From Marsupella aquatica (Eukaryota; Plantae; Marchantiophyta): a stretch of DNA of 64,000 nt. A program made the position numbers and the translations under genes. How positions within the stretch are numbered: position 1 is the first letter of the stretch; the number at the start of each line of letters is the position of its first letter. The stretch covers positions 24,117,899-24,181,898 of the forward strand of contig OZ316891.1 in the NCBI GenBank assembly GCA_973895155.1, written 5' to 3'. The notes beneath the pieces are model-generated. The model did no database searches, was not told the DNA's origin, and was given only the letters and a program-made list of their open reading frames with translations. Positions 29 to 64,000 of this stretch are shown here, in pieces.

Positions 29-219
29 TGTTGTAATGTATGGATAATCCTTAAAGGAGACCTTAAAGAATATGATTAGAGAATCCAAAGGGTATGCTTA
101 GGAATAACTACCCTAACCATATTGTATAGAAGAGACTCCTCCATTTTGAGTCATCTTCTACTTATTCGATTGATCAAAGAAGGATGATCATAATTTCATA
201 GTATTTTTGAGTTATAACA
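29..219 (+). repeat. 5' LTR of Copia element (191 bp)
   Basis: Direct repeat of 5688-5878 with two substitutions seen; termini TGTTGT...ATAACA. Confidence 0.97.
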
Positions 220-232
220 CGTTATCAGCACC
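220..232 (+). promoter_or_regulatory. Primer binding site CGTTATCAGCAC (half-molecule tRNA-Met type)
   Basis: Immediately follows the 5' LTR; it is not the canonical TGGTATCAGAGC and resembles the PBS of Bianca-type Copia elements. Confidence 0.7.
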
Positions 233-479
233 TTCGCCTCCATTCCTGAGCAAATGCAAACTCCCTTCTCGATTGTGGGAGTATAATTTTTTCATGGGGA
301 TTTTGATTTCAACACGATCCTAATATCAGAGAGACACGGAGACAGTAGTTGACATTTTTTTTGCCAAATTCTTGACTAAAACGCGCAAGGATCAACGACA
401 ATGCCGCAATACAGCCACAAAGCTCGAAGAAAGATACAGAGCATACAGTACTTCCAAGTATTCCACACAATTTACTGCC

Positions 480-3400
480 ATGGAAAAATTACAATTCCCT
501 GTCCTCAAAATCGACGGGTCTAACTACCTCTCTTGGTCACAGAATGCCGAAATTGTGCTAAATGCTAAGGGAATTGGAGACACAATTCTCGCTGATCACC
601 ATGGCAATCTACAGACAAAAGCTCAAGCAATATTTATCCTCCGGCACCATTTGGACTCCGATCTACAAACTCAGTACCTGGACGAATATAACCCTCGAGC
701 TCTATGGGACGCATTAAACAGACGCTATGACCATTTAAGATTGATCTCTCTCCTATCTGCACGCAATGATTGGATACATTTACGTGTACTTGACCATCCG
801 ACTATTGCTAGTTATAATAGTGCGTTATTCCGCATCACCTCTCAATTGAAGGTATGCGGACACCCAATATCTGAATCCGATCAAATAGAGAAAACGTTGT
901 CTACTTTCCCTGCAGCAAGCATGACACTATCTCAGCAATATAGACAAATGCACTTCACCGAGTACGCTGATCTAATCGCAGTCATGCTACTGGCGGAAAA
1001 GAATGATTTATTACTCATCAGCAACACAAAGTTGAGACCACCAGGCACAATCCCTAGAGCAGAGTCTCAATACATGGCTACGCCTTCGCAGGCGCAACAC
1101 AAATACAAGGGCAAGAGCCGGTTTACTGGAAACCAGGGTAATCGACTACAAAGATTCAGAAACACCCAATTTACAAAACGACGCCAAAATAATTATACGA
1201 GGCCTTCATACCAACCTCGTAAGAATTCGTGGACTCGAGCCTCCCGGACTTCCACTACTAAATGTTTTCGATGTGGAGGCACAGGCCACATTGAAAGAGA
1301 CTGTCGGGTACAAAACCATCTGGTCAAATTATACCAAGCAAGCCTAGCAACAGCAAATACCACGATGGTCAATAACTACTTGGAAATTGATGAAGATCTT
1401 TCCAAATATACGAATATCACACCATTAATAGAGGCCAACCTGGTCATAGATACACACTCTGAACCTTCTCTCACAGACTATAATATGTGCATACTGGATA
1501 GCGGCACATCTCATACCATATTGAAGGACAAACGATATTTCCAACAGATATTTCCCTCCAGCCGCCCAATCACCACTATCACAGGCATCAATGCATTAGA
1601 AGAAGGCCACGGCCCTGCAAAGTTACTCCTCCCTAACAACACTATAATCGAAATAAAATCTGCTATTTATGCCCCAGGGGCCACAAGAAACCTATTAAGT
1701 TTTCATGTTATCAGGAAAAATGGCTACCATATTCGATCTGCACCAGGCAATGAAGATAACTCCTTACATATCTTCATAGAAGACGGAAATAACTCCCGCA
1801 TCCATGAGATTCTACCTTATCACCCACCTGGACTATATGCTGCACCAATACAGAGTTTCCAAACAAATATTCTAAACACAACAATCACAGAGTTGTGGCA
1901 TTGTCGCCTGGGCCACCCAGGCACCTCAATGTATCAACGCATCCTACAGGATACCAGAGGTATTCCTCCAACAGTCCGCCCAAATTCCATGAAATCGCCC
2001 TGCCTCGCATGTGCACAAGGCAAACTACAAATCAGACCGTCAGTACCCAAGACTGTGAATCAAATCCCGGCTTTTCTGGAACAACTAAATGTGGACATAT
2101 GTGGACCTATCGAACCACCAAGTGGTCCCTTCCGCTTTTTCCTAGTCATGATTTGTTCCTCAACCAAATGGTCCCAAGTATCCTTGATATCTACCCGCAA
2201 TCTGGTGATTGCCCGCCTTCTTACACAAATATTTAGACTACGGACACAATTCCCTAATTCGCCTATCAAAAGGATTCGAATTGATAATGCAGGCGAATTC
2301 ACATCACCCATTTTTAATGACCTATGCACTACACTTGGAATAACAGTACAATATTCAGTGGCTTATGTTCACTTCCAAAACGGAACGGCAGAGTCCTTCA
2401 TAAAAAATATCCAGATGATATCACGCCCATTATTAATGAATACCCAACTTCTGCTAACTGCCTGGGGACATGCTGTCCTACACAGTGCTGCTCTATTAAA
2501 ATACAGGCCATCCGCCTTCAACAAATATACACCACATCATTTGGCTTACGGTAACATTCCTGACGTATCACACCTCAAAATCTTTGGCTGCTTAGTCATG
2601 GTACCCATATTGGGACCCAAGAGGACCAAGATGGGACCTCAAAGACACAGAGGTATATACATTGGTTTTGACTCTCCTTCTATAATTAGATATCTAGAAC
2701 CAACAACTGCAGACACCTTTAGAGCTCGCTACAATGATTGTCAATTCCGAGAAGATATATTTCCTACCCTTAGCACAGTGAACCTCCCAGTTACGCCTAA
2801 GCCAACTCAACTACAATGGCAAACACAAAATCCCTTCTGGAATGATCCAAGAACACCATTAGCAAACGATGAGGTCAAAAGGATACTACACCTTCACCAA
2901 ATTATGGAAAAACTGCCAGATGCGTTCAATGACGCTGCACAGATGACGAAATCACATATTGAAGCAGCCAACGTCCCTGCACGTATAACCATTGATGAAC
3001 AATTAGCTAATCATGTACCACCCAAAACAAAGAGAGGACGTCCTCCTGGTTCTAAGAACAAACCAGCAAGCAATAAACGTCCTCCTACCACACTACTTAC
3101 CATGACATCAAACATACCACAGCAGAATGAATATGAAGAAATCTCCCTCAACTATGCAGTCACCGGAAATATATGGAATCGACAGGATACAAAAACGAAT
3201 GACTGTTTTGCACTGATGATATCACAGACCATCTCTTCAGAGTTAGCCGATCCTCGCACAGTTCATGAAGCTCAACAACGCGAGGACTGGCCCTTATGGA
3301 ATAAAGCAATAAATTCAGAGCTCGATTCCTTGATTTCTCGCCAAGTATTTGGTCAAATTAGTCACCCAACATCTGCTCAACAACTAACAGGATATAGAAT

Positions 3401-5408
3401 TATCCTGGTCACAAAAAGGAATGCTCAAGGAGAAATCATCCGACATAAGGCACGTTTAGTTGCCAAGGGATATACACAGATATGGGGACAGGACTATGAT
3501 CTAACATATTCTCCAGTCATGGACACCATTACCTATCGTTACTTAATTGCTTTCTCTTTGGTTCACAGACTAACTTTACATCTCTTGGATGTCGTGACAG
3601 CATATCTTTATGGCACCTTAGACACAGATATATACATGCAGACTCCACCTGAACTCATTCAGAGAGTTCATTTCCATATTCAGGGGGAGAGAACTTTGCC
3701 ACTATCTCCCGATCTAAAAGCGGGCATTACACAGATAGTGCCCACAGCTCTGCAATTAACATTGATGAATCAAGCATTAGAACTTGAATCAGATCGAACT
3801 GGCCATATAAGCACAACAACCCAAGCTGTTTCTATGAAACAAACAGAGCTACATGCTATATCAGTGCACAGACAGATCAGCAGAAAGAAACCTCAAAGTA
3901 AACTTGCTGTACAAGTCCTCCGCTCGATATACGGCCTTAAACAGAGCGGACGGATATGGTACCAACGCTTTAAAGCGGAAATGCTAGCACTTGGGTTTGT
4001 TAACAATGAAATCTCGGGGGGGTCACTATATGGAGGGTCATACATCGCGTGCGACGTTTTAGGGTTTGACCCCCCTAACTTTAAAGTGAAAAATATTTTT
4101 TTGCAAAGCCCTTTCTTTCTTAAAATTTTGTCATTTTTTATTAAAAAACCCCTAAAAACTTTATAGAAAGTATTTTTTGCAATTAAATAGGTCTATGTGT
4201 TCTTTAAAGTTGACCAATCAATAAAACATGCCCTATGTGTTCTTCCACCAAACTTTGGAAGTCTTCCGCCACACCCATTTAAATGGGCCTATACTTCGTC
4301 GCACGTGATGTGTCACTTCCGTGGAAGTGACCCCCCCGAGAATGAAATAGCTCCTTGCTTATTTATTAAGCATATCGAACAAGAATTTGTCATCCTGGCG
4401 ATTTACGTTGATGACATCAGTATATTCGGAACTCCAAAGATTACTTCGAATACGATCTCATCTCTCAAGAATATATTTCAGATGAAAGATATCGGTGAAC
4501 CTTCTTACTGTCTGGGTATACAGATATAAATTTTACCTGGTGGGATCTTCATTCATCAATCTACATACGCTCGCAAAGTGTTAAAACAATTTAACATGGA
4601 TAAATCTTACCCAGTGACCACACCGATGGACCTTCGCTCTATTGATCCTACAAAAGACATCTTTCATAAGAAAATGGATTCAGAAGTAATGCTCGGACCA
4701 GAGAAAACATACCTCTCTGCAATTGGGGCCCTCATGTATCTTGCTAATCAGACGTGACCAGATATAGCTTTCGCAATCAGTATGCTCGCTCGACACAGCT
4801 CTCAGCCAACCATTCGCCATTGGAATGGCATAAAGCGAATTTTCAGGTATTTACAAGGCACAATCGATATGGGACTATACTACTCTAACACAAGCGCTAA
4901 TGAACTTGTTGGTTATGCTGATGCAGGCTACTTATCCGACCCTGATGATTCCAAATCTCAAACCGGATACGTGTTTCTGCAAGGAGGGACGGCAATCTCC
5001 TGGAAGAGCACTAAGCAGACACTTACCACAACTTCTTCAAATCACGCTGAAGTCATTGCCCTATACGAAGCTTGTCGCGAATGCATCTGGCTTCGCCAAT
5101 TACTTGACCACATTCATACATCAGCCGGATCCCCCCCACTAACAGCACCAACAACAATTTACGAAGACAACCGACCCTGCGTGAATCAAATCAGCATGGG
5201 ATTCATCAAGGGTGACCGCATTAAACACATCGCCCCGAAATTCTTTTACACCGCCGAGCAACATGGCGATCAAGTAAACGTCGTCTGGATCCCTTCGAAC
5301 GAAAACCATGCCGACATATTCACAAAGCCGCTACCCCGACACTTACATAACGCACATTGTGAAGGAATAGGTCTACGTCGACTTTCCACACTCAAAGATC
5401 CGCCCTAA
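480..5408 (+). pseudogene. Copia gag-pol polyprotein, interrupted by a MITE and two nonsense codons
   Basis: Zinc knuckle CFRCGGTGHIERDC; protease ILDSGTSHT; GAG-pre-integrase WHCRLGH; integrase D-D-E (VDICGP, RIDNAGEF, AESFIK); RT YGLKQSG and YVDD; RNase H ADIFTK. Removing 4013-4348 restores NNEI|APCLF. Stops at 4527 and about 4755. Confidence 0.95.
4013..4340. mobile_element. Non-autonomous DNA transposon (MITE), 328 bp
   Basis: Perfect 15-bp TIRs CTCGGGGGGGTCACT / AGTGACCCCCCCGAG; 8-bp TSD AATGAAAT at 4005-4012 and 4341-4348; inserted in the RT coding region. Confidence 0.96.
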
Positions 5409-5687
5409 ACATGAAGAAACCAACCAGTATTCCATTCGAGACATACACTTAGACATCCTATCGTATTAGGATTTCCATACATTAGGTCACAAATACACTT
5501 ACAATTAACCTGATAACTTTTGATCTATACATGTAAGTGGTAACACTCTTTTCCCGAGAAGAAAGCAGCGGGTTTTTAATGAGGTTACACCTGATGATCA
5601 AATGCTACAAAGAGGTTAATATAGGATTCCCCCAATATTACTCATTAAGATTGCAAACAATTATCAATTTTAGCAATCTAGGGGGAG

Positions 5688-5878
5688 TGTTGTAATATAT
5701 GGATAATCCTTAAAGGAGACCTTAAAGGATATGATTAGAGAATCCAAAGGGTATGCTTAGGAATAACTACCCTAACCATATTGTATAGAAGAGACTCCTC
5801 CATTTTGAGTCATCTTCTACTTATTCGATTGATCAAAGAAGGATGATCATAATTTCATAGTATTTTTGAGTTATAACA
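5688..5878 (+). repeat. 3' LTR of Copia element
   Basis: Preceded by PPT AGGGGGAG (5680-5687) and followed by TSD GATAT. Confidence 0.97.
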
Positions 5879-6097
5879 GATATGATCAACTTTTGAAGCT
5901 ACGTGAGCTTCCAGTTTATTAATATGAATTTCACCTTTTGTATGGTGATCGATGTCTTGGAAGATTGTACGAATACTATGAATAGTCCCGGCGCTAGTAT
6001 TGTATTATACTAAAAAAACTGCACTTTAACAACTCACACTTCTGCCCGTTAGAAAAGACAAACTACAATTCTAGCTGTTCAACGATAAAGCAACAGT

Positions 6098-7243: not shown

Positions 7244-10200
7244 TGTCACGTCGTTAGCCTAGGCCTTAACCCGAGTTTTGGCTTAGACAGGCACATCCTT
7301 TGTCAAAATGAGGGTTCGGGCAGGGAGGGATGCACGGAATGCACCTAACTCACGTAAACTAGCGCTAAGTACGCCTATGGTCATATACGGACACCTCCTA
7401 GGTATGGTTTGTGTTCCGCCACTGGAACGTACCTTAATCAATAACAGGATCGACCCCAGCTTACGGGCTTCTAAGCCTTCGTGTTGTCCGCCTTTGATCC
7501 AGATTCGATGATAAGGGTACTCAACCCGGGCTCGCAACCAGTACCCGCAAGCTGCACCCCGTGCCCGACTTGGGTAGTGCGTTTGGCCAAGCGTTGGCAC
7601 CTATACACGAGATTCACACATACATACACGCGCAAGCATACAATCTCGATTTACACGAAGGAAATAATGGGGAAGGATTTTACTCCATAGGAGACATATG
7701 CATACACTTAGTTGACCCAAAAGCTCGGGAATGAACAGGTCCAAGGCCGAGGGTGTACACTACAATAGAGCCTGTCTCCACGCTCGCCCAGCGAGCTTAG
7801 TCCCACACCCTCCCCTCGGTACTCTTTCACTTCCAGAGGTCGGGACTCCCCGCACATACTGCGGATGTCCAACACTGAGACTAAACCCCCCCCCCCTTGC
7901 CTCTACCGAGGGGTGCACTAAATACTAAGGGCCGAGGAGCGGAGTGCCCTCGCGCCCAAAGATTCGCTAACTAAGGTCCTAACTAAGCTGGCTGTTAGGC
8001 CAAAAAACGGCTTGTTTTATTAGAAGATCTTAATCTATGCAGGTTGTGCAGCATGGCAATGCTGTGCTAACTAGGGCAGGTGCTTTCCCTATAGCCTAAT
8101 TGAGCTATTCCTATCTCTACTCTAATCCTACTCTGCCGCTAATGCCTGGCACGCTTGCCAGAGCCGCCTGAGTGGGAATGGCTATCCCGGTGCCTTCTGA
8201 GCCTGTCGGCATCCTGTTTGAGTAGCTGGACCTGGTCCAACAAAGATTTGTTTTCCCGCTTTGCCGCGTTTGCCTCTTCCGCGGCCTCCTGGCATGCCTC
8301 CTCCAGTTGCTGGGTGTCGCTCGTCAGTTTGTCCACCAACTGGGCCTGTGTCGTGGCTTCTCCTTGAAGCTGTGCCACCTCTGCCTTCAGGGCATCAATC
8401 TCGGCTGTGTCCCGCTGAGACCTGGAGTCAGCTTCCTCCAGATCCCTCTACCAACTGACGGCTTGCCCCTGCAAACCGTCAATCTTGGTTCGGAGCCGCG
8501 CAATCTTGGCGTCCTTTTCGAGCCCGGCCTGTACTGCCAACGCTGCTTGGGCTCTAGCCTCGGCGACCTGGTCTTCCGTGGCCGTTACCTGAGGCCGTAG
8601 TTGCTGGAGTTCAGCCTCCAGGGTTGCCACTTCGTCCTTCAGATAGGCAGACTCAACCCAATATTGCTCTATTCTCTACGCGGTCTCTGCCTGCGCATGT
8701 CCTGCCCTTACTGCTGCAACCACCTCCTGGTTGAAGAAGTAGGCCACCCTCCGGGCCATGTATTCCCCGGTGTCCCAAGAGATGTGTTGCAAGAAATCTC
8801 CCAACAACCCGTTCAGAAATGTGCCTGGCGCAAAGAGTTCTGGATGGTCTAGACTATGTCCTTCGGGATTCGGGCACGGGCAGACTCCAACCCGTGCGGG
8901 AGTGGAAGTGGACACATCCAGCCCTTGAGGTAAGTCGGTCAAAGGGGCTAGTTCCACTGGAGGTGGGTGGTTCTCCTGCACAACGGCGGGGGGTGGAGGA
9001 ATCTCCCCGGCTACCATGGCATCTGCTTTGGGTACGGCTTCATCCGGCCCGGCTTCGATGGCATTGTCCCGATTGATCATGTCTAAGGTCGCGATAACGT
9101 CAACGGGTATGCCTGGCAGGGCGGTAGCGGCGGGTTGCGGGGCCGGGGTAGCAAGACTTGCAACTGCCAGACTTTGGGCCTCGGGCTGCGGTTGCCTTAC
9201 CTGGGCTGGGAACACCCATTTTGGCGGGGTCAGCTCGGGCTCATTGAGATGTGGGAGGCTCCGGCGGTCAAAATGAGCGTACCACTCGAGGTGATTTTGA
9301 CGTGGCTAGCAAAGTACGCCCTCCCACCAAGGTACAAAGTCTTCCTTCTTTGCTCCATCTCCTCATGGAACTTCTTGACATAGAAGGATGCCCACTTCCT
9401 GGGCCAATAGTTCTCCACCTGAATGACATGAGCGGCCGATATTTCTCCTCTAGGTTCCACCATGTGGAGGGCATACCGCTTGAACTCTAGGCGTTCTGCT
9501 ACCCCCGGGATGAGCCCATGACTCTACCCGGTTTATGCCCTCGAGTAAGCCAAAAATCATCTTCAGACGTGCCTCATCGAGACACATCACTCTCCCGTGC
9601 GCTTGGGATTGTTGACGGGCCTTGTCAAAGTTCTGAATGAACTCCGTCATATCCTGCCCGTAATACCTACTCCCGTTCCAAGGGAGAGAGGCGAGGTGCT
9701 CAAACCCCTAAGTCTTCAGATAGCATGCATGCTTGGGGTGGAGAATGTTCTTGTGAACGTTGTCCCCCATGCAATGCATGGTCAGCTTGGCTACCGCAAC
9801 CGTGGCCAAAGGCAACCCGGATACGGCTGCGGGCTCCTTCCTCTTCCTACTCCAAGACTGATTCCCGGGGTGACTAGAAGAAGGGGACATCTCTCCATCC
9901 TCTCGATCAGGTGGTGGTAGCGCGACTGCTGTGAGTATTGGTGCTAGGGCCGCTAGTGTTACCGTGTTGTCCCCTCGGGCTTGCTGGGGTGGTGTGGGGT
10001 TGTTCATACCCCACGGTCGTCGATTCAGAGGAGGGTGAGCCTCCTCGTCTTCGGAGCTGATATGTACCGCATTCACCACGGATTGTACTCGGAGAGGTGG
10101 TGGAACCGGTGGCGGGGACCGGCTTGGCTGAGGCCGAGGAGGTGTAGGTGCGGGTACGGGCACGGGTTGGCCGGCACTGGTTGTTGATGGTAGAGTTGCC

Positions 10201-11118
10201 ATGAAGTTCTACAAGTGCCGGTGGAGGTTTTCCGACGCAAGTGAAGATGGTCCTATCGACCGGGTAGTGTTGAACTCGCCGTTGATGATAGCCCGGACCC
10301 AAGCGGGGATGTGGTCAAAGTGGTGCCGCTGTAAGTCGATCGTGCCCAGAATATTGAAGACCTTGTCCGGAAGCCGAAGCAGTGCCTCCCAGAAGCCGAT
10401 GTATTTGCCTCCGTCGAAGAAGTACCCTGATACCTCTTCGGGTCGGTAAAGCTCGCTTTGGGACGGGTACTCAAAGTTAAGGAGATAGTGGTGGCGGCCT
10501 GCTAGGCGGATGGCTCTCTTGTATTCGCGTTTGATCTCATATTGGCGCGGATTGGCGTGTTTCAATGAGTCGGCCAAGTGCCCTCCAATAGACAGGAACT
10601 GAGTCCAAAATTGTATGGTCAAACTGGAAAGGATCGTGTGCAACATTCAGAGATAGCAGGTGACTAAGGAAAAGCGAGAGAGCTGGGATCAAAGCTGGCG
10701 CGTGGACTGGAGAGCTTGGTGCATTGCAAAGGATTGGCCCCCTTTTTATACCCTGAGAGCTCGTTGATTGCCCAATGCCTCCTCGTCGCTTATAGGTCAA
10801 GCCTTTCACGCTCACAGTGTACCGGCCCCTTCTCCAGTTTGGGTCAGCTCGTGTCAGTGGCCGCCTCCCGAAGTTCGTTATACGGACCCAAGGGAGGGAG
10901 GAAAAGGGCCCATTATACGCTCGCAACCCATGCGTGCAAATGGAAACCCGCCGCCAGCCCGACCATGGATTCCCCTTATTGACTAATGATTTCCTATTCA
11001 TAATGGCTACCTAAGTACTGTCGTTATACTAATAATAACGGCCTAAGATACCCCTAACGCGCGTGCTAAGCATGGTTAGACCAAATTACTCATTACCCGC
11101 CGTACCGGCAGCGTCACA
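7244..11118 (-). mobile_element. 3.9-kb 3' LTR of an Athila/Tat-like Gypsy element (family A), containing a degenerate coding region
   Basis: On the minus strand it follows the integrase end and PPT (AAGCAGGGAGCTA|TGTGACGC) and ends CGTGACA at 7244. Its last 640 bp match 61839-62480, which is followed by a PBS and gag. Confidence 0.88.
8139..10646 (-). pseudogene. LTR-encoded accessory protein: Pro-rich linker, Transposase_32/PMD-like domain and coiled coil; broken by stops and frameshifts
   Basis: Successive minus-strand ORFs 10646-10209, 10202-9708, 9650-9450, 9463-9230, 9215-8676, 8630-8448 and 8378-8139. Segment GFEHLASLPW...MTEFIQNFD...HGRVMCLDEARLKMIFGL resembles the 1216-aa ORF. TATA-like TATAAAAAGG upstream at 10741-10750. 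Confidence 0.7.
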
Positions 11119-11958
11119 TAGCTCCCTGCTTAATTGTGAAGCGTCCTCGCAAACATCACTCTTGGCATTGTTGTCTTGATGGTGGTACTTCTTCACACAA
11201 TCGTAACTGACTCGCGTGGGTAGTAAATCGTTGGCATACGTTGTGAGTTCCAAAGATCCGTTAGGGTAGATCTGATTGACTAGGAAAGGCCCTAACCAAC
11301 GGGTATGAAGCTTCCCCGGAAACTGCATGTACCTACTATCGTACAACAAAACTAGATCGCCTGTCACGACGTTGACCTTCCGTAGTCCTTTGTCATGCTA
11401 CTTCTTGGAAGCTACCTGCTGCTTGACGATGTGTCGAGCTGCCAGTAGCCGTGCTTCTTCTAATGCTTCAATCTGATAAGCTTTGTCCGACAAACTTTCA
11501 GCTCTAGGTAAGCGATCCCGAAAGCTTACCCGGGGAGTGTGGACTTCAAACTCAACGGGCACCAACAAATGTTGGCCGAACACGAGAAAGTACGGGCTGT
11601 GACTCGTAGTAGTCTTGTAAGCCAGATTATATGAATACACCATTGTGTACAACTTGTCATCCCAATCCATTTTGTGCACGGCTATTGTCTTGTTGAGGAT
11701 CTTCCCGATGATACCATTGGCTCTTTCTGTCAGCCCGTTGGCTTTAGGATGATACGGGGTAGTCTTGCGGTGCTTGACTAGGTAACGCTCCGTAAGCTAG
11801 GCTACGTACGGTATCATTGAGGAAGTGTGTTCCACGGTCGCTTACTAACTCCAAGGGCGGCCCGAATCGGGTGAAGATCTGCTCGTATAAGAACCTGGCG
11901 GTGGTTGTAGCGTCGTCCTTTACCGTAGCCCATGCTTTGACCCACTTGGTGGAGTAAT
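11086..11958 (-). pseudogene. Gypsy integrase C-terminal remnant (family A)
   Basis: DYSTKWVKAW...RFGPPLELVSDRGTHFLN, WDDKLY, and GPF motif KLHTRWLGPF; highly similar to the integrase in 35093-41161. Confidence 0.92.
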
Positions 11959-12320
11959 CTAACATGGGGAACCCGCACCACAACGTGCTTCTTGCATGAT
12001 GCAACGTTTCTTGTGGTGTTGTACCGATATGGCAAATGATTGACAATGATCCTAAACGTGCGCAGAGGTCGTTCTAATGATCAAGGAAGACACTATCGCA
12101 AAAAGATCTTATCTAATATACCCTGTGGCAGACCGACATGTATCACAAGTACACATCAAAAAGCACGAGCATCCAAAAGCAGACCTACTAAAGGTTGACA
12201 CTTGTCACATTTTAACTAGTTTATATTTATCCAGGAATTTGTTCTAAATTGTAACGATAAATGGTCAAAGTTACCGTTTAAAAAGACCGTTTATGTCAGT
12301 ATTCTACTTCGATATAATAT

Positions 12321-12920: not shown

Positions 12921-15027
12921 CTATATTACCCCTTTGGTTACAACGTCAAAACCATTAATTCAACAGTAACTATCCGCCGAATTGATGGTTTTGTCGTTTC
13001 TTGAACGGTAAGAAAATCCGTACCCAACGGATCCTATAACCGCTCGATGGCTCTTTCCGTTTGAGACTTGGATTTAGAAGAAACCCTCAACTATACAAAC
13101 TAGCTTCATTTTACCATGTATCATTATTTTATGTAGTCGGTTATCTTTGGGGAGTTAGAATGTCTCGCATTATTGGAATAACGTGTCCAAATACAGGTGA
13201 CGTTGTGACAATCCCTGTGTCGATTTCCGAAACCAAGAAATGTGTTAGTGATAATTACCTGTGTGGAAGATTTGGGGTGACGAGAAAACATATTTTGAGT
13301 ATCAGAACTTTGAACGATGGGCCCGCTCATTTTGATACTGAAGTGGAGGACGTTGTTTGGAATCTCGAATATGGCGCGGAGTACTTGATTTTCATTCAAG
13401 TAAGGGACATCGTTCATGTCAAGGTGGAGACGCATCAGGTTGCTCACGATGTGATTGACCTTACGTCCGATGCTGAATGCTCTGAGGGTTCTCCACCAAT
13501 CTCAAAGGGCGGTGAGGTCAATAAGGAGGGCGGAAGTACCAGTTTGTTGACGCCCCAGGTACCCCCCGTCTTCATTGCGTTGGAGGAGTCTGATGATGGA
13601 GACACTCTAACTCGTCCTGTTCTACTTGTGTACAGAAGAAGCGCACTTGATGCCTTGTTGAAGTCAACTGGACAAAGTGAGTTATCGCGCTTTGTTAGGT
13701 CCGAGGCATTCATTCACAAACAGGTTGAATGCTTACCTATAGAGTACAATGGGAATACCATATTTGAGCTTCCACCTGTTGAAGGTGTTGGCTCGAAAGG
13801 GGATCGTCTGCAAAACATGGATCGATGCAAGGACTGCTACCTCTGGACTAGAATCCTTCCTACTTTTGCTAATGTTGTTCCGAAGAAGATGTGGGAATTT
13901 GGGAAAGTAAGCTGTAGTGGTTCTCTCGAATGCCGAAATAGAGCATGTGAGTTTACGCCAGGACTTAAGTCAGAAATTGTAATGGATGGGATGGGACCCC
14001 CAAGCTCTCTGGTCAACATTGTCCTGGGAGGTTTATCAATGCTGGAGGAATTGTTTGTTGCTATTGCCTTCAAGTTCCATTTTGCGTTGAGTCTTGTCCA
14101 GCAAAAATGTTTTATATGTACCTGCAAGTTTTGATCAAAAATGACACTGCAAAACACATGTCACGACTTGCAATCCATATGGGAGTGCATAACCATCCAT
14201 GTCGGAAGGTCTGGTCTAGAAGTGCTGAGAAAATAGCAATAGAAGAAATACGGAGACAACATGAGAAGTCTCCTTCTACACCGTGCGTTTTGAAGAATGA
14301 GATCACTGGATCTTTAATGGATGCTGTAGGTGAGTCTGTGGATGACATTTCAAAGCTAGAAGAATCAGAAATCTGGAAATCACTTATGCTCGTTTCAACG
14401 CCTCAGAAGTTTTTTGCGTTATTTAAGAGCGTTCGCAAAGATCAGGTTGGTCGAGGTGATTTGGAATATCTAGTTCGCATGCAAAAGAATGTTACGTTTC
14501 CTTTCCTCCAAAGATATCTTCTTCTTGGGCAGGGCTGTAAAGGTGATAGAGCGCATATTTTCAAAATGACTATCAAAGGTCATGGATCGGGAGTAGATTT
14601 ACTGCGTCAGATGAAGAAAGGGGGGCCTCTAGAAGGAGCATGGGTGAGCTTTGACGTGATGAAAAGGATGTTGAAAGAATGGAGTACTTTTAGTGCACAT
14701 GTGTATGACCATAACTATCAAGCTTTGTGCACAATATTTACTTGTGAACTCAAAGCAGAGGACACTGCATCGCTTGAGAAAGCTTGGAGGTTGATGATCG
14801 AAGTCGTTTTGGAGAATGGTTTAAACGGTGTGGAAATCCATGGTTTCATGGTGGATAATGCTCAGGCAGGATGGATAGCGGTTAGGAATGTCTTCTTTGA
14901 CGGCCATCCAAACCCGGAGAGAGAGCGATCGGATGCATTCCACTTCTATCAGTCTTTGCATCAGCACTCTATCGAAGGAGTACTTGAAGAAAAACGTGTT
15001 GAACATTGAATCCTTTGCGGAATGCCG

Positions 15028-18000
15028 TGTGATGCCTAGACAGGAATCACTCGGCCGGTTAAGTGGGTAAAGCAGGAAGGCACCCTAGGAACACCTTAGT
15101 ATAGTGACAAAACAAGGAAAATATAAACAATTAGGGGCAACCATGGAACCCGGGCAGAGGCCGGAGGTAAGGCTGAGGGTGAAAACCCGATTAGGGTTAG
15201 GGCGCGTTAAGCGTCGGCGGCTAGGAAGGATCAACGGGAAGAAGGACCGGCAGAGGAGAGGGGTAAGGAGCGCTTGCAGGAGATGGTGGCTCATTTGCGA
15301 GCACGAACTAGGCAGACGACTACGGGAGGCCAACTACTGTCAGCTGCTTAGGCAAGCACTCGGGGAGAGAGTAGATACCGACGATCAACCTAAGGAGGGT
15401 ATGAGCAACGTCAATCAAGCGGCACATTTCTGGGGATGCCTGTTCGAACGGGCAACTGAGTACATCAAGACTTACGAGGACGAGGAGTCAGAAAGGGCAG
15501 CTCGAGAACGGCAGGAGCTCGCTCGATTGTGGGAGCTGCAGAAGACGGCTTTCTTAGGAGGCGAACTCATCAAGGACGAGTTCCTGTGGACGCCTACTTC
15601 CAATCAACTCGACGATCTTCTGTTTTGCAAAGACAGCGTCGTCGGCATCCGAGAGGCCATCAAGAACTGCAACGACATACACTGGGAATTAAAGGGTAGC
15701 ACGGAAAGGTGGACCCAGGCAACGGTGCTAGGAGAAACCTCCACGGCAGCAGAGATGAAGAGGAAGGGAGCCGTCAACGATGAAGCCACCCCGGCAAAAA
15801 GAACGAGGTCGGCGGCACCAAAGAAGCCAGCCGAGCAGCAGAGCAGGAGGCAGGGAGAAGCCGAAGAGGAGGAGGTTGATCCCATCAAGGCCATTCCAAC
15901 CAGGGATGACACCTGGAAGGGCTGGGCGGCAACCCTACCGGTGGAGGTGCAACTACATTTTGCACGGGAGGAGGATGCATGCTTTACGGCCATGCAGACC
16001 AAGAAGTACCAAGGCTTCATGGCCGGATCCGGCTTGGAGGCCTTTGTAAGATTACCATGGCTGAAGCCGGAGGTACCGGAGTCAGACCTATTAGAATTCG
16101 TGGGGTCATGGGAACCCGAGACCAATTGCACGAGGATATATGGGAAGGATTTCTATCTTACTCCCAAGGTGATTGCCGAAGTGTTTGGCTTGCCGATGGG
16201 CAATAAGACCAAAGTTGATACCAGGAAGACCTTGCCTGACAAGGAGTTCCGGTCGTTCCCCGGGCCATCAACGAAGAATGGCTTCTTCCGGAACACCTGC
16301 ACCAACCCGCACATAGGAGAGATGATCGACTTCTTGCGGGTGACCATGCATTGTAACTTGCCGAGGGCAGAGATCGGCAAGGCACAGGTCTATCTGGCAG
16401 AAAGGCCAGACCCAAGCCGGGACTACAACGGGTACCTCCTCAACCAATTGAAGAAGATCTTAAAGGAGGAGCAGCAGGTAATCGGCATGGGGAGCGTGTC
16501 GCGGCTTGGCTATCACATGCCGCTGTTGTGCCGGTATGCCAGAGGTCAGACTTTTGCCCCAGTACTTCCCCTGCAGGTAAGGGCACCCGAGGAAGCTCCA
16601 ACGCCGAGGCCGTTGGCTGAGAAGCCTCAACCACCTGTTAGTCCTACGATCGAGCAGGTGTTTAGGCCCAGGAAGGAAGACTTGCCGATGCAGCAACCAG
16701 GCATGCAGAGTCTGCTGAAACTACAGGAGAAAGAAAAGAAATCGGCATCGGCAACGACAACGGCAACGGCAACAATGCAGGACACTACTACAGCGGTAGG
16801 CCTACACCGGCTCACAAGAGAAAACCCCTTTGCTGGAGACAAGGAGAGAATCAGGCCGGAATCCAAGCCAGGTGTTCGAATGTACGTGGGAACCTCAAGC
16901 TCCGAATCTGAGGCAGAATTGCCTGAAGCTCCTACCGAGGAAGAGGAGAGGGAGAAGCCGGAAATCCAAGAGGTAGAGGAGGCAGTGGAGGACTGCAGCC
17001 ATGATAATTCCGGCTATGGGTCGGACCATCACGTTCCAGGAGTAAGGACCTGTGGCCGGTTTGTCCCCACACTTCCAAGGGTAGTGCGAGGGGACCCCAA
17101 CCAGCAGAGTAGCCCTGAGTCTCCCCCACCAGATGTTGCTCCCCCGAGCTTCGACGGCATAAAACAGACGGTGCAGGAATTTCAGGAGCGAATCAAGCAG
17201 GAGGAAGAGGCCGCCCTGGCTAAGGAAAAGGATTTACCAGGAGGAGATTGGCTGGAGGACATCAGGCGGCTAGCCGAAAAAGGAAGCAAACCTCTAGCCA
17301 CGATTGAAGAGATCCGCAGGACGGCTTGGGAGCAGAGGCCACGATGGGCGATGCCGATCACTTCTACTTACTCCACCTACGCTAAGAATAGAGCCATGGA
17401 GTATGGTGAGATGTGTGGGGAACTTGCGCTCAGCATCTTTGGAGAGGAGTTGGAGGTAGGACCCTTTTTCCATAGGGAGCAGTTGGAGAAGCACCAATTA
17501 GAAGAAGCGGTGGCTTTAGAGAGAAGCAAGAAGGACGAGGTCATTCGGCGGCTTAGGAGGATGGGAGCCGAGATTGAAGATCTAAGGGCGGCCAAGAAAG
17601 CCCAAGATGAACTGCGGATTAAACGACATGAGCTGAACATCATGCAGGGGCAGTTGGACGCCGCGCAGGCTGATAATCAGAATATCAAGGATAAACTGAC
17701 TCAGACGCAGGAAGAGTTGGCCGACACGATCAAAGAAAGGGAAAAATGGAAGCAAGAGCTGAAGAATACAGAGGAGGCCCACATAACAGCCAACAGCCGG
17801 GCCATGGCGGAGACCCAAAGAAAGGAATGGGCGTTGAAAGGGGAGCTCGAGAAAATCCGCGGAGCCCTTGAGCAGAAGGAAGTCGAGTTAGGGAAATCCT
17901 ATCAAGGGATTATGGCGCTGCAGCAGGAGCTTGCGTCCCTGACGGCCAGCTTCAAGGCCGACCTAAGGGAGAAGGACGAGATGCTCGAACAGACTTACGC

Positions 18001-19675
18001 CAAGATGAACCAGATGGAGTCTGTCATCATTGCAGAGCTCGACAAGGAGCTAAGAGCAACCCAGGAGGAGAAGGCTACCTTGAAGAAGGAATTGGAGGAA
18101 GCCCACAGGGAGCAGGAGGAGGCCAAAAACGAGCTGGAGGGGGCACGTAAGGACCTGGATGAAACCCAAGAGGAGTTGGAGGAAATCACGAGGAAGATGG
18201 AGAACCTACAGCGGCGGGCCGACAACCAAACAGAGCGGCTGAAGAAACAAGCCGCAGTATTTAAATGCTTAGCTATAGCAGGTCCATCTCCTGTTGGGAC
18301 AAACCAGTTACCAGGGGTGGTAATTGCCGAAGGACAAGCCGCCCCACCTGCACCAGTGCCGGAGGTAAGTGGGAAGGGGAAGGGACCAGCTGCCGAGCCA
18401 CCAACGAAGAAGAAGCGGAAACCTTCAGGGTCAAGGAGTAATACGACTTCACAGGCCGTGGTGATCAAGGAGGTAGACCCAGCACCGACCCCAGACAGGG
18501 TCACGGCTAAGGATCCAACTACCCTAGGGGAAGGGGAAGCCGAAGCCGTGGGGTTGGCTGAGGCCGAAGCCGTGGGGGTGGCTGAAGCCGAAGCCGTGGG
18601 AGTTGTCGAGGCTGAAGCCGAAGGTGGACCCAGTCAGGCCGATGGAGAGTTGACTCGGTCAAGGGCAGGTAATCTGTCAGTAGGCGGGCCAACGGCAGTG
18701 GCTGAGGAGGAAGTGTTGGGGGCGTCCATTGAGGATCCACCACCGGTGTCGTGACGGTGCAAGGGCGCCGTTCCTTTTAGGGAGGGCGGACGTGGAGGGA
18801 GGAGGCGTGAGTGGGCAGGGCGGGCACGGATCTCCACGTTTAGGATTAGGATCAGAACCAGGAGCGGCCCTGACACTTAGCTTAGTGGGATTGCGGTCCC
18901 ACTGGTAGGAGCAACACTTGTGCTCCTGCCTTGCTGTACATAGGTAGATTCGGGCAAGTAGATTACTGTTAAGTAGATTAGGCTTACGATGCAAAGAATG
19001 GCGGATCCACTACCAGGATAAGTACCTGGGCAGCGGGGAGCTCAGGGCCTCTTCTTTAGCAAGTTTTTAGTTTGCACCAGCCGGGCTGGGATCAAGTAGT
19101 ACGAGAAGCTCTCGGTTAGTCATACAGTGACCCTTGTGTATATTCATGTTTCCTCATGCCTAAGAGCTGAATAGAGTTGGCCTCACGGCTTAGTTCGCAG
19201 AACTTGTGTATGAGATGTACTGTTTGTATGGCAAGTGCATGGTATGACTCAGTCAGAATGAGTCATTTTGCTATTTGTGTGTCGCATTAACTTGTGTGAA
19301 GAGTGCCCACATCAACAGAAGGAAGGAAAGTAAGCAGGGGAGTGAGAGTTGGATGTGTCGAGCTGAGAGAGGTCTTAGCGGCTTAACCAAGCCTATTGGG
19401 GATCATTCCGGCGGCGGAATCCAAACATACCTAACAAGACGGAGGGGAAGACAGGGGAAGACAGGGGAAGGCCTATATTAGGCCGGCTACGTATCTCATG
19501 ACCCGATGAAGGATCTGTCCAGTATATGTGTGTAAAATGTTAATAGTAGTAGTAGAAGGTTAGCAGCGTCCCATGCCGCTAAGCCGCGGAAACGGCCTCA
19601 CCAAGCACGAAACCTGCGGGAATCGGCTTGAGCTGGGGGGTTTCTTGGGTTTAGGGAGCCATGGGACGCACCACA
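15028..19675 (+). mobile_element. 4,648-bp solo LTR-like element (Gypsy family B) encoding a long ORF
   Basis: Termini TGTGATGC...GCACCACA; 5-bp TSD TGCCG at 15023-15027 and 19676-19680; no gag or pol and no internal LTR pair; shares TTCCGGCGGCGGAA...CAAAC (about 19406) with family A LTR ends (about 25805). Confidence 0.88.
15104..18754 (+). CDS. 1216-aa LTR-encoded protein: basic N-terminus, Transposase_32/PMD-like domain, acidic/Pro linker, long coiled coil, NLS-like KKKRK
   Basis: Uninterrupted ORF (first ATG at 15143); GLEAFVRLPW...LLEFVGSW...IYGKDFYLTPKVIAEVFGLPMG; heptad-rich region about aa 790-1050; C-terminal (AEAEAVGV)n 24-bp repeats at about 18530-18625. The domain name is inferred from motif resemblance. 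Confidence 0.85.
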   Translation: MTKQGKYKQLGATMEPGQRPEVRLRVKTRLGLGRVKRRRLGRINGKKDRQRRGVRSACRRWWLICEHELGRRLREANYCQLLRQALGERVDTDDQPKEGMSNVNQAAHFWGCLFERATEYIKTYEDEESERAARERQELARLWELQKTAFLGGELIKDEFLWTPTSNQLDDLLFCKDSVVGIREAIKNCNDIHWELKGSTERWTQATVLGETSTAAEMKRKGAVNDEATPAKRTRSAAPKKPAEQQSRRQGEAEEEEVDPIKAIPTRDDTWKGWAATLPVEVQLHFAREEDACFTAMQTKKYQGFMAGSGLEAFVRLPWLKPEVPESDLLEFVGSWEPETNCTRIYGKDFYLTPKVIAEVFGLPMGNKTKVDTRKTLPDKEFRSFPGPSTKNGFFRNTCTNPHIGEMIDFLRVTMHCNLPRAEIGKAQVYLAERPDPSRDYNGYLLNQLKKILKEEQQVIGMGSVSRLGYHMPLLCRYARGQTFAPVLPLQVRAPEEAPTPRPLAEKPQPPVSPTIEQVFRPRKEDLPMQQPGMQSLLKLQEKEKKSASATTTATATMQDTTTAVGLHRLTRENPFAGDKERIRPESKPGVRMYVGTSSSESEAELPEAPTEEEEREKPEIQEVEEAVEDCSHDNSGYGSDHHVPGVRTCGRFVPTLPRVVRGDPNQQSSPESPPPDVAPPSFDGIKQTVQEFQERIKQEEEAALAKEKDLPGGDWLEDIRRLAEKGSKPLATIEEIRRTAWEQRPRWAMPITSTYSTYAKNRAMEYGEMCGELALSIFGEELEVGPFFHREQLEKHQLEEAVALERSKKDEVIRRLRRMGAEIEDLRAAKKAQDELRIKRHELNIMQGQLDAAQADNQNIKDKLTQTQEELADTIKEREKWKQELKNTEEAHITANSRAMAETQRKEWALKGELEKIRGALEQKEVELGKSYQGIMALQQELASLTASFKADLREKDEMLEQTYAKMNQMESVIIAELDKELRATQEEKATLKKELEEAHREQEEAKNELEGARKDLDETQEELEEITRKMENLQRRADNQTERLKKQAAVFKCLAIAGPSPVGTNQLPGVVIAEGQAAPPAPVPEVSGKGKGPAAEPPTKKKRKPSGSRSNTTSQAVVIKEVDPAPTPDRVTAKDPTTLGEGEAEAVGLAEAEAVGVAEAEAVGVVEAEAEGGPSQADGELTRSRAGNLSVGGPTAVAEEEVLGASIEDPPPVS

Positions 19676-22179
19676 TGCCGCTTCATTTGTGGAAGCCTAC
19701 AGGGTATCACGAGAGATTGATTCATGGTGGAGATCTGGAAATTGTATTCCTGGGAAACTTAGAATGTTGCAAGGATGGATCGCTTGGTGGGTTGTGAGGT
19801 GGCGTCAGTGGGGAAATTTCATATGTTTGGTGAGTCAATGTATACTAGCGCCTGGCGCTAGTATTAATATCCCTTTTCTAATTGTGATCTTTACTCATGC
19901 TTTTTGCCAACGCCGGGCGCTAACGTACGAATAGCTTGATAGCTTCTTCAATCTTTGCAATCATCATGAAAACATTCATACCTTTTGTCCGCCCATTTTG
20001 AAGTTCCGCTTTTTTATTCGATATATTGTACTGAATTTGACAAAACTCTTTTTCAGAGCAAAAGTGCACTTGAAGGGGGGATGATTCCCAATTGCACTGG
20101 TTCTGAAGCTGTTCACGGAATCATGAAAGCATGGCAAGGAAAGAAAACAGTTGGTTTGTTCGAAGGATGTAAGACCGATCACAACAGAGCAATCTCACAA
20201 ATAGCAGCCTATACAGCATATCGTGAAGGGCTCCATTGGGGTACCGGTCCAACAGTGTTTGAATTGGCTTTTCGTTCGGCTGACCAAGCAGGGTCCCCAA
20301 AACTCTTTGAAGAAGCCTCTAATATGTTACTCGCAAATGCAGCAGAATTTGATTTGGAGAGGGATTCTTCGTTGAATGGGGATTTTGTGACGAAGTCTAT
20401 GAAAAGAAAAGGTCCGGCGACCGGGAATGTCTCTCCACAAGACTCCCATCGACATGACACGGTTCTCATAACTATGCCAAACACCCGAGGTTGCAAGAGG
20501 AGAAATTTGACCTCAGCCGAGTTTGAGCACATTCCGATACTTAAAACTCCTCCTTCGAATCCAGTTATCGATTTGTCTGAAAGTGGCTCTCCAGTTTCCC
20601 ATCATGTCACTCAATCTTCCAAAGTTCCAGAAAGTGTTCTGAACACCACTCCATTCATTCCTGTAGACACTTTGCTTTTTGAAGTGGACGTTGTACCCGG
20701 GTCGTGGCATTTGCGGAGAGTTTCCAGACATGGTGCTGGACCACAGTGTAATGGGACGTTGTCTGGAAGTTGTGATCGAGATGAGTGTTGTAATCAAATT
20801 AAGAAGGTCGGATATCCTTCAAATGCAGGGGTTGTCGGAATAGTCATCAAAGGTTACCGCTTATTCAGAGGTGAACACCATCCAGAGCTTGTCTGGTTCT
20901 GCCCCACTCGTGATTGCTGGAAGAGCCGCCCTCGTCAAGGTATTGTGAACCTCCCTACTTGCCCATACTTTTTGCCAGTACAGAAAGGCACTTATCTTTC
21001 AAGTCTAGAGTTGAATTTCCTTCACAAGCAGGGCATTGAAGTCTCGAGAGGAGGTGCTATTTCACGTTGTCCTTCTCCATTCGAACTGAGAATCAACATT
21101 GATGTTTTCCTTGAAAAGATTGATCTTGCACAAGTCAACATCCATTTTTGAACGAGAAACGGGCGTGCGATGAGCTCCAGATCAAATCTCACTCAGGAAT
21201 ATCATAAAAGGATTGAATCAGCAACGAAAGAAACAATGACTTTGATCAAAACTATGGAAGTTTCATCGGGAAATTCATACGGAAACCGATTCTAGATACG
21301 CACACATGCACATTTACGAACTGCAAATACTTACTGGGTGCAGATTTGCATTTTCCCTTGTTGCTCTTGTGAAGATTTCTTTTGTCGACATTCTTGAGGG
21401 AAACCTTTCATGCCATGTAAACACTTGTACTGGGTTTACAAAGTTATCTGCAAGCTTGATCCTATGGACAATATCCTCCCAAGCCAACCAATTCTTACCA
21501 TTGCGGAACTGCGTTATATTCTAGCAAGGCAGAATGCTTATGGATTATAGGAAGGCTTAGTATTCTAGTTTACGTTCAACGGGTATGTAGGACTTGTCGT
21601 TTCGTAACGGTAACTTTGTTTTGGTTAGCGCCCGACGCTAGTAAACAACATTTGGTTTCTTTTCAACATGGCTCAATGTTTTGTGGGTTGCACAAAAAAC
21701 TTAATTTGTTTTTACAATTTTACGGATGTGTAAATTTCATTGTACGAGTAACGGAGATTTCTTTGTATTCAATCGTCACTTGGACTTCAGTTTTGTTAGC
21801 GCCCGGCGCTAGACTTCATTTCCTTACTTGGTTTTAGTTTGTAGTTTCCAGGTCTGAACGTGTGGATTTCTTTCGCATGCATTCTCGAGGATGACCTTTT
21901 CTTGCCTTAGAAACTGTTGTCCTTTGATCATTTCGGTAGATGGTGAGCGGATATTTTGTTAATGATATTTTGTAACGGTATCAAACGCTTGGTTAGGACT
22001 AAGCGCTAGTAAAGGCATCTTCCGATAATTGTCGTTTTCCCCATCTTTTTGAGTTGATGTTGAATTTGACCTCTTTGGTTTGGTCCAAAATTAAGCCATT
22101 TTTTGTCAATGATAGTACCAATTCTCCTGTTTTGTTCAACTATCTTTCCTATTATGATCATCACTGTTTCCTGTTTCCT

Positions 22180-24206: not shown

Positions 24207-25987
24207 ATGTCGGTATCATCTATGGCCTCGAGGCACCTTTTACTCTCCGGTCTCTATCATTGAAGAATTTATCCCATAATTTATCCCTCGGCTCAACGAG
24301 CCCGAACTAACCCCATCACGGTGGGTATTCCCGGCCCATGAGAGGCGACCCCAGCTCAAGGCCAAAAGTCCGGCGGCCATGAGACCCATGACTACCCCGG
24401 CCCCACAACCAGCCGCTGCCGCCCCTCCGTCCGTATCCGACGATGTGGTTATCGCAACCCTAGACTCGATCAACCAGGTCAGCGCGATCAAAGCCGGGTT
24501 GGCAGAGGCCGGGCCCGAGCCCGAGACTGTGGTTACAGAGGACACCCCGCTACCCTCCACAACTGTCCAGGAGAACCGCCCATCCCGTGGAACCCAACCC
24601 CCTCTACCGTCATGCTTCAAGGGCTGGATGTCACCACTCCAACTCCCGCGCGAGTTGAGGTCTGTCCTTGCCCAAACCCGGATGGGCATAGTGTGGAGTA
24701 CCCGGAACTCTTTGCATCGGGCATGTTTTTGAATGGGTTGCTGGGAGACTTCTCCCAACAAATTGCGCGGGATACCGGGGAGTACATGGCACGAAAGGTG
24801 GCCTACTTCTTCAACCAGGAATTGGTTGCAGCTGTGCAAGCAGGGCATGTGCAGGCTGAGGCTACGCAGAGGATAGAGTGGTATCGGGTTGAGTCTGCCC
24901 ACCTGAAAGACAAAGTTTATGCTCGGGAGACCAAACTCCAACTGCTTTGACCTCAAGTAGCGGCCACTAAAGATCAGGTGGCCAAAGCTAGGGCCCGGGC
25001 AGCCTTGGCAGAACAGGCCGAAGCCGGAAAGGATGCCAAGATTGCACGGCTCCGAACCCAGATTGATGGTATGAAGGGACAAGCCGTCATCTGGCAAAAG
25101 GATGTGGAGGAGGCCGACGCTCGGGCCCAACAAAACATAGCCAAGATAGACGCCCTGAAGGCGGAAGTGGCACGGCTTCAAGGAGAAGCCACAAAGCAGG
25201 CCCAGTTGGTGGACAAGCTGACAAGCGACGCCCAGCAACTGGAAGAGGCATATCTTAGATAGCATAGATTCGAGCACGTGGTCATTCCAAACCCCGGCTC
25301 TTAGTATTTAGTGCACCCCCCGGTAGAGGCAGGGGGATTTTAGTTTCAAAACTGGGTATCCGCAGGATGTACGGGGAGTCCCGGCCTTTGTGAGTGAAAG
25401 AATACCAAGGAGGGAGGGTACGACTAAGCTCGCTGGGCGAGTGCGGAGCCGGGTTCCGTTGTAGTGTACGACGCTTTGCCGTTGGGCCTGTTTACTCAAG
25501 AGATGTTGAGTCAACCGAGTATATGTGTATGACGGATTCTGAAGTAAAGTCTTTTCCCACCATTTCCTTCATGCAAACCAAGATTGTATGTGTGTGAGTT
25601 CAGTTGCATGTATGAATCTCGTATATGGGTAGAGAATGCTTGGCCAAACGCATTATCTGAGCCGTGCATGGGGTGTAGGCTGCGGATAGTGGTTGCAAGC
25701 CTGGGTTGGATACCCGTATCATCAGATCCGGATAGGAGGCGGACAGCACGAAGGCTTAGAAGCCCTTAAGCCGGGGTCAATCCAGCTATCGACTTAAGGT
25801 ACGTTCCGGCGGCGGAACACAAACTATACCCATGACATTTTTGTAAGTAGGACTAGGCACACTTAGCGCTAGATTATGGGAGTAAGGTTCAGTTTGCACA
25901 TCCCTCCTTGCCCAAACCCTCAAAAGTAATGAAGATTATGCCCGTCTAAGCCAAAATCCGTGTAAGGACGAAGCTTACAGCGTGACA
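24207..25987 (+). mobile_element. 3' part of a family A-related Gypsy LTR with a fragment of the LTR-encoded ORF
   Basis: ORFs 24612-24950 and 24978-25262 match 8676-9215 and 8139-8630 (CPCPNPDGHS, DTGEYMARKVAYFFNQE); ends CGTGACA at 25987; internal deletion near 25255. Confidence 0.88.
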
Positions 25988-35052: not shown

Positions 35053-35064
35053 TAGCCCCCTACT
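35053..35064 (-). promoter_or_regulatory. Polypurine tract AGTAGGGGGCTA
   Basis: Directly upstream of the 3' LTR on the minus strand. Confidence 0.85.
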
Positions 35065-61838: not shown

Positions 61839-64000
61839 TTTAGTCTCAGTGTTGCACATCCGCGGTATGTGCGGGGAGTCCCGACCTCTGGAAGAGAAAG
61901 AGTACCAAGGGGAGGGTGTGGGACTAAGCTCGTTGGGCGAGCGTGGAGCCAGGCTCCATTGTAGTGTACACCCTCGGCCTTGGACCTGTTCATTCCTGAG
62001 CTTTTGGGTCAACCAAGTGTACGCATATGTCTCCTATGTAGTAAAATCCTTCCCCATTATTTCCTTCGTGTAAATCGAGATTGTATGCTTGCGCGTGTAT
62101 GTATGTGTGAATCTCGTGTATAGGTGCCAACGCTTGGCTAAACGCACTACCCAAGTCGGGTACGGGGTGCAGCTTGCGAGTAGTGGTTGCGAACCCGGGT
62201 TGAGTATCCATATCATCGAATCCGGATCGAACGCGGACAATACGAAGGCTTAGAAGCCCGTAAGCCGGGGTCGATCCTGTTATCGATTAAGGTACATTCT
62301 AGCGGCGGAACACAAACCATACCTAGGAGGTGTTCGTATATGACCATAGGCACACTTAACGCTAGTTTACGTGAGTTAGGTGCATTCCGTGCATCCCTCC
62401 CTGCCCGAACCCTCATTTTGACGAAGGATGTGCCTGTCTAAGCCATAACCCGGGTTAAGGCCTAGGCTAACAACGTGACGTAGCCTTTGTTTTTGGCGCT
62501 AGATGGAGGGGGCACTCTACGTGTAGTAGAGGGAAGACATGTGCGGGTGCACTTAGGCAAAATACACCAGGCCCTTGTGAGTTACTAACTATTGCATTTA
62601 TACGAGTAAATGCCCGTCACTCGTTCTCAAGCAGCTTACTTGAGGAGATTGACCATCGAACAAGAGAGTGCAACCCCAACAAGCTCCGACTCTTCAAGCT
62701 CGGAGGATTCGCAATTGCCTTGACAAATGAACATACCACTGGGACCTTTGGGGTCCGGTCCAGCCGGTCCTACTCCGGTCCCTGCTGCACCACCACCACC
62801 GCCACCGCCACCAGTACCTATGGCAGCCGCCCCACCGATGGCCCGCGCTGCCCAAGCTCCCCCACAAATATCACAGCGGTCGTGGTTCCATTATCAACCT
62901 TTCAAAGGACATCATGGGGATGATCCAGATGAATGGCTGGATGAGTTTGAAGCCAATGCTAAGGCCAATGGGGAAGATGCCATTAAGCTAACCGTCTTCC
63001 CCGGGGTGATGCGGGGAGAAGCTCGTCCATGGTACAACTCGCTGCAACCCGGGATTACATGGGCACAATTCCAAGCTGCGTTGCTACAAGAGTTTTGTGC
63101 CATTGGATCAGAGCAGCATTCTTTATTAAAGATCAACCAGCTTTGCATGGGAAAGGAGTCCCTGCGAAAGTTCATTTAGAAGTTTCAGAAACTTGCTACC
63201 AAAATCCGACCTAGGCCGGGTGATGCTCTCCAGCTTACATGGTTCCTCCATGGTTTGCCCACAAATATGCAATTCTAGGTGCGCCAGAATAACCCAATTT
63301 CAATGCAAGCAGCTATAGCGTGCGCCAAAACCTACCACGAGTCCACCTATAACTCCCGGCAAAGCCAACGGGCACGCCACAGGAAGGGCAAATACAAGAC
63401 CTTCAGTGACAGTGACTCTGAATCGGACGACAAGAAGAAGAAAAATGCGAGAAGAAGAAGAAACATCGTTTGACCTTGTCCAGTTTGGAGACAAAATCTA
63501 GTTTGGATTCGACTTCGACCAGCAAAGCCTCCACTTCTAGCTCATCAGGAAGTGATTCGGAGAGCAAGAGCTGAGGCAAAACGAAGAAGAGGCGGGTTAA
63601 GAAGGAGGGAAAAATCAAGCCCCGTGTTCGAAGAACGATACCCGATCCAAAGGCTGCCAAAACAGACAAGCTTAATGAGATCACAGATCGTCTCAAAGCA
63701 CTGTCGGTACATCTTGCGAAAAAGCCTGTGGAGAAGAAGAAGCCACCTGAGACCCGAGCACATGCGTGGTGTTCAAAGTGCTTCCAATCCAGGCATGTCG
63801 TGCAGGAATGCCCAAGATGGAAGAACCAAGTCCACCATGTGGAATTAGATGATGTTGACAACCCAGGACCTGATTCGGAGTCCACGGAGTATTTCTTCAA
63901 AGATCCCCCTGACTCGGTGTATCAGATTTCAACGGTGGATCCGCGTAACTTAGCAGGTAGAACTACGTACCCCTACCCAAACAACGGCAGGAGTTTCCAA
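61839..64000 (+). mobile_element. Family A Gypsy element: truncated 5' LTR (to 62480), PBS and degenerate gag; runs off the window
   Basis: Reverse complement of about 7244-7885; PBS TGGCGCTAGATGGAGGGG at 62494. Confidence 0.92.
62610..64000 (+). pseudogene. Gypsy gag, with stops and frameshifts
   Basis: MPVTRSQA; FKGHHGDDPDEWLDEF...MRGEARPWYNSL; knuckle WCSKCFQSRHVVQEC; homologous to the gag starting at 41071. Confidence 0.9.

Follow-up and report, generated by a model that had tools for sequence, protein, structure and literature searches.

A probable solo LTR with an intact accessory gene inside it in the liverwort Marsupella aquatica

A 4,648-bp unit in the window, i.e., the whole 64,000-nucleotide stretch of Marsupella aquatica DNA that was analyzed, is most probably the solo LTR of a multi-copy Athila/Tat-like Ty3/gypsy element and contains a 1,203-codon accessory gene. 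On the same reading, the product is a predicted nuclear coiled-coil protein of the PMD/VANC/Transposase_32 type, which would likely bind DNA and keep the element transcribed. The unit and its insertion site comprise the following features.

15028..19675 (+): probable solo LTR, 4,648 bp, TG...CA, with a 7-of-8 terminal inverted repeat; both ends are boundaries common to other copies
15023..15027 (no strand): left target-site duplication (TSD), TGCCG
19676..19680 (no strand): right TSD, TGCCG
13160-15027 and 19681-21151 (+): decayed multi-copy host gene split by the element, without a Pfam family

The TG...CA ends, the short inverted termini and the perfect 5-bp TSD described in the earlier note were all confirmed. 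The first letters are TGTGATGC at 15028 and the last letters GCACCACA at 19675, the termini of the 4.65-kb unit match as an inverted repeat at 7/8 positions, and the probability of such a TSD arising by chance is about 1e-3. Self-BLAST and a sensitive repeat scan of the unit detected neither an internal pair of shorter LTRs nor a long TIR, which the same note had named as signs of another class of element. The reading as a TIR-bearing DNA transposon was rejected for want of a long TIR, and a TRIM reading was also rejected. The unit further contains no gag or pol domain detectable with Pfam, as had been claimed, the single result being a sub-threshold coiled-coil match. The frame of the flanking gene is regained once the element and one TSD are taken out, and in one sequencing-run contig 15017 is joined to 19680, representing the empty site in a paralog of this host gene. 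Since the gene is broken by its own stop at 15007-15009 plus further stops, its description as decayed holds; its label as a MULE, which comes from motif likeness only, was not confirmed by Pfam or PDB sequences.

Evidence from other copies was obtained by aligning contigs from 4 of 16 sequencing runs (X1, X2, X3 and X6) to the locus. These contigs tile the unit at high identity; their summed depth, which is not a measure of copy number, is roughly 100-fold higher than in the flanks in X1 and X2, without such a contrast in X3 and X6. Past the 3' end of the unit, contigs of all four runs continue into a T-run and then TGGCGCTAGATGGAGGGGG, a PBS-like motif, and further contigs at this end enter unrelated flanks (18, 40, 4 and 3 in the four runs). 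The motif also occurs in the window at 62494-62512, where it separates an LTR end from a gag ORF, and is presumably complementary to plant tRNA-Asn, a match for which the literature searched gave no confirmation. Because the PBS-like motif follows there, the 3' end of the unit corresponds to the end of the 5' LTR in other copies. The integrated unit begins at 15028, and neither of its ends recurs within it, which makes a solo LTR the most economical interpretation. Upstream of the unit's 5' end, no PPT is visible in these contigs. Internal joints in run contigs were considered as a sign of splicing or deletions and rejected, as many lie at GATC/GANTC-type sites, as expected from Hi-C ligation chimeras. 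Scans of viral contigs and metagenomes yielded no homologs with genomic context.

Within the unit, the following features were annotated.

15143..18754 (+): intact ORF, 1,203 aa from the first ATG; alternative start Met87 at 15401, giving 1,117 aa
15122..15127 (+): TATAAA, candidate promoter box for the ORF, from the motif only
15401..15760 (+): N-terminal conserved region, about aa 87-206, without known family; matches P0005, P0007 and P0009, none in Pfam
15758..15808 (+): bipartite NLS-like motif, aa 206-222, predicted from its pattern
15905..16582 (+): conserved globular domain of ~225 aa, aa 255-480, likely of the Transposase_32/Athila-ORF/PMD/VANC type
17495..18274 (+): long predicted coiled coil, about aa 785-1045, from a heptad scan and sub-threshold coiled-coil Pfam matches
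18407..18421 (+): KKKRK, monopartite NLS-like motif, aa 1089-1093, from its pattern
18539..18620 (+): 24-bp in-frame tandem repeat, 3.4 copies
18755..19675 (+): non-coding 3' part of the LTR, 921 bp, likely holding conventional LTR signals; 898 bp at the equivalent place in family B (see below), i.e., ~0.9 kb in both families

From stop to stop, the ORF extends over 1,221 codons without interruption; in 200 base-shuffles of the element, the longest ORF reached 377 codons (mean 184). Its reported intactness thus stands, and its reported size needs correction: the 1,216 aa count from an in-frame GTG at 15104, the ATG gives 1,203, and the share of the 4,648 bp is 78% instead of ~79%. Conservation begins at Met87, and the homolog P0007 starts at the equivalent position. 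Between Met1 and Met87 lies a short out-of-frame ATG ORF of about 22 codons (15283-15351, +), a possible uORF if transcription starts past the TATAAA at 15122. An env-like reading of the long ORF was rejected, as a transmembrane helix is absent (maximum 19-residue hydropathy 1.07).

In a full HMMER protein search, the domain of the focal protein was found conserved across 23 clusters, among which P0016 is treated as spurious. A profile, A1, was built from 19 homologs, without the focal sequence and omitting P0016 (bacterial Ig repeats) and three N-terminal-only matches. The word-index protein search returned zero matches with aa 80-520, likewise zero among longer proteins, and 2 matches with profile A1. 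The Pfam profiles Transposase_32 (PF20167), ATHILA (PF03078), PMD (PF10536) and DUF1985 gave nothing above the cut-off for the domain or its homologs. Two leads hint at a remote kinship: language-model features place the extra ORF nearest to the Transposase_32/ATHILA clusters, and VANC21 is the top structural match to the predicted structure, over most of the domain. Foldseek against PDB and viral structures gave zero matches at E <= 0.001, a VIA re-examination of Foldseek's 78 chains produced no match, and PDB sequence searches with the domain found nothing. Of the kinship suggested earlier between aa about 290-480 and Transposase_32/PMD/Athila proteins, a remote similarity remains at the level of a lead, without a Pfam profile match. 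The focal protein likely belongs with transposon DNA-binding and anti-silencing proteins. A competing reading, to which we give a minor but real chance, keeps the same solo-LTR architecture and takes the protein as a non-chromatin accessory factor (RNA-export, particle or oligomeric scaffold), in which case the VANC match would be a chance helical arrangement.

Relatives in the window, a second family (B) and a complete element (G), help to interpret the architecture.

7244..11118 (-): family B 3' LTR, 3,875 bp, TG...CA, with a decayed homologous ORF at 10646-8142 and its domain at 9785-9284
11119..11959 (-): end of the family B integrase with the PPT, immediately before the 3' LTR; homologous to the PPT region of paired element G
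61839..62512 (+): family B 5' LTR end, then the PBS-like motif at 62494-62512; gag from 62727
24284..25987 (+): B-like LTR, truncated, containing the ORF's coiled-coil part; one of the two sequences in the dN/dS comparison
31889-44379 (-): element G, complete Ty3/gypsy, with identical ~3.16-kb LTRs, TSD CTAGA and an intact 1,992-aa gag-pol

The broken ORF of family B comprises about 835 codons and is matched by profile A1 across the frameshift (E 3.4e-18 and 2.2e-12); besides this ORF and the focal one, the window contains no significant match to the profile. The integrase end of family B shows 64-74% protein identity to that of element G, and its PPT region can be aligned to that of G, an element in which the paired repeats define where the LTR begins. 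In family B, the PPT and the TG lie 30-40 bp behind pol, and the ORF comes next, inside the LTR; the 3' end of this LTR (7245-7885) recurs at 61839-62479 with 94.5% identity. Judging from a TATA-like box at nt 369 (104 nt before the ORF), the ORF at nt 473-2977 and an AATAAA at nt 3098, the family B LTR looks like it holds a full transcription unit. In element G, the PBS lies about 20 nt from the LTR, and the LTR has no long ORF; a TATA-like box and an AATAAA lie 840 and 690 nt before its end. A diverged, partial LTR related to element G (57007-59166) shows 74-83% identity.

The proposal of a solo LTR with a whole gene inside is thus supported by the PBS junction in all four runs and by the homologous ORF inside the 3' LTR of family B. 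We regard it as improbable that the unit is instead what deletions left of a shorter-LTR element with an internal ORF, or one end of a non-autonomous, LARD-like element. All published extra ORFs are internal (PMC7264820), the run contigs, too short to span a pair, show no paired 4.65-kb copy, and those of the focal family show just 30 letters past the PBS. However, one deletion should leave an internal LTR start or an LTR end with PBS, and none is present; moreover, contigs cover the whole unit at high identity, and family B has PPT-TG-ORF-CA directly behind the integrase.

Three unrelated features were also observed in the window. A Ty1/copia element at 29-5892 (+) has 206-bp LTRs that are 96.6% identical and an interrupted pol; an ORF set at 46487-49957 (+) with DUF7869 (E 1.6e-37) is probably a DNA transposon; and an intronless microbial-type terpene synthase lies at 51785-52849 (-; Pfam TRI5, E 3.5e-15). 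Microbial-type terpene synthases are known from non-seed plants, in keeping with the liverwort origin of the DNA.

The family B homolog of the gene is under purifying selection. Between the truncated B-like LTR (24284-25987) and the ORF of the family B 3' LTR, there are 60, 51 and 120 differences at first, second and third codon positions, and the dN/dS comparison of copies suggested in the earlier note, run here on the two B-type LTRs, gives 0.22 over 313 codons. Of the 23 coding variants listed for the focal family (among 40 of 578 variant rows), 12 are synonymous where 7.0 would be expected (P 0.022), and all 12 listed indels, out of 25 rows, fall outside the ORF. That the focal ORF is a passenger without current selection, intact merely through youth of the insertion, is very unlikely: young LTRs occur nearby (element G, 100% identical), the family B copies in the window are broken and the focal synonymous excess over nonsynonymous changes is modest, but the dN/dS in family B, the conservation of the domain across 23 clusters and the position of the indels speak against it.

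If the unit is a solo LTR, the full element would have the structure LTR(ORF)-PBS-gag-pol-PPT-LTR(ORF) and carry the gene twice, and LTR-LTR recombination would have left the focal copy. The gene would have its own promoter near the 5' end of the LTR, which is probable because of the TATAAA at 15122 and the TATA-like box before the ORF in family B. Athila reportedly has an internal PPT behind pol; the LTR may have been enlarged once plus-strand priming shifted to a PPT directly behind pol, a shift that would turn the Athila-type ORF region between pol and LTR into U3. The TATA-like box and AATAAA of the ORF-less element G, at 840 and 690 nt from the end of its LTR, would fit conventional LTR signals within the final 0.9 kb and an ORF in U3; the order TATA-ORF-AATAAA in family B would also fit an ORF in a long R. 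The position in U3 versus long R/U5 is among the least certain points of this explanation. As to function, we favor a nuclear, oligomeric DNA-binding factor that would counter the silencing of its own family, and this predicted anti-silencing role is likewise among the least certain points. The ORF-bearing families have a CpG o/e of 0.67-0.97, compared with 0.12-0.35 in element G and its relative; G, with its 100% identical LTRs, is very young, yet strongly CpG-depleted (gag-pol o/e 0.12). CpG retention was rejected as proof of anti-silencing, as unrelated elements are equally CpG-rich: the contrast is compatible with it and not probative, because the Copia and the flanking DNA element stand at 0.67-0.75. 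A k-mer scan detected no target motif array. In its boldest form, which is speculative and rather unlikely to hold in full, the proposal is that a liverwort Ty3/gypsy lineage has incorporated into its LTR an anti-silencing gene that is VANC-like and sequence-specific, with two copies per full element, each solo LTR being a self-contained cassette that would shield all members of the family from methylation in trans.

Among known plant lineages, TSD length, PBS type and the pol layout of the neighbors would, from sequence, fit Athila or aRH-less Tat, and not Phygy or Selgy. The PBS motifs here are presumably tRNA-Asn- and tRNA-Asp-like, and the neighbors in the window have a single GAG-PROT-RT-RH-INT ORF in which a chromodomain and an extra RNase H were not detected. 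The lineage features compared are those outlined in PMC6317226 and PMC10508981. In the lineage descriptions of PMC6317226, 95% of Athila elements have a 5-bp TSD, as the focal unit does, tRNA-Asn and tRNA-Asp are the two main Athila PBS types, LTRs of non-chromoviruses reach about 5 kb, and Phygy and Selgy have a 4-bp TSD and appear without an extra ORF. Membership in Phygy or Selgy was rejected, since the unit has a 5-bp TSD and a long ORF. Resemblance to Athila extends, as a lead, to the Transposase_32/ATHILA clusters nearest to the focal ORF. The extra ORFs of Athila, Ogre and Retand lie in the internal region (PMC7264820), where PMC11963269 also places plant extra ORFs. The arrangement here departs from that of Athila, whose extra ORF stands behind pol and before the 3' LTR: the family B ORF is inside the LTR, and the PPT of the relatives lies 30-40 bp behind pol. 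The focal protein, without a transmembrane helix, also measures 1,203 aa versus 487 aa for the sunflower Athila 14 ORF(+).

VANC21 of VANDAL21, a MULE, is the top structural match to the focal domain, and VANC has a coiled-coil oligomerization region, as the focal protein has a predicted coiled coil; PMD proteins (MAIN/MAIL1, Gypsy PMD-A) offer a parallel in that the PMD-A clades are Gypsy-encoded. However, no sequence similarity of the focal protein to VANC or PMD was detected in Pfam and PDB sequence searches, and VANC is described as dicot-specific and borne by DNA transposons. As a precedent, MMTV sag is a whole gene in the U3 of a retroviral LTR, present at both element ends and kept in solo LTRs. 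The likeness is that of a whole protein gene inside an LTR; sag belongs to an animal retrovirus and encodes a much shorter membrane superantigen, and homology is not suggested. Searches of open-access literature, which covers few subscription papers, turned up no plant retrotransposon whose LTR contains a protein gene.

When hosts purge elements by recombination, a solo LTR is what is usually left, and this process is treated as the way for genomes to strip retrotransposons of coding capacity; here, a complete gene remains, so that even a repeat left on its own would retain the whole accessory gene. What distinguishes this case is the size of the ORF, its presence in two families in one window, the selection on it and a testable fold lead. 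It is multi-copy and intronless, forms a single cassette and comes with a fold lead towards VANC, and would allow the anti-silencing idea for Athila/Transposase_32/PMD-A extra ORFs to be tested directly in a liverwort model. If a VANC-like gene does reside in the LTR, counter-silencing of the VANC/PMD type would date from early land plants and extend to retrotransposons.
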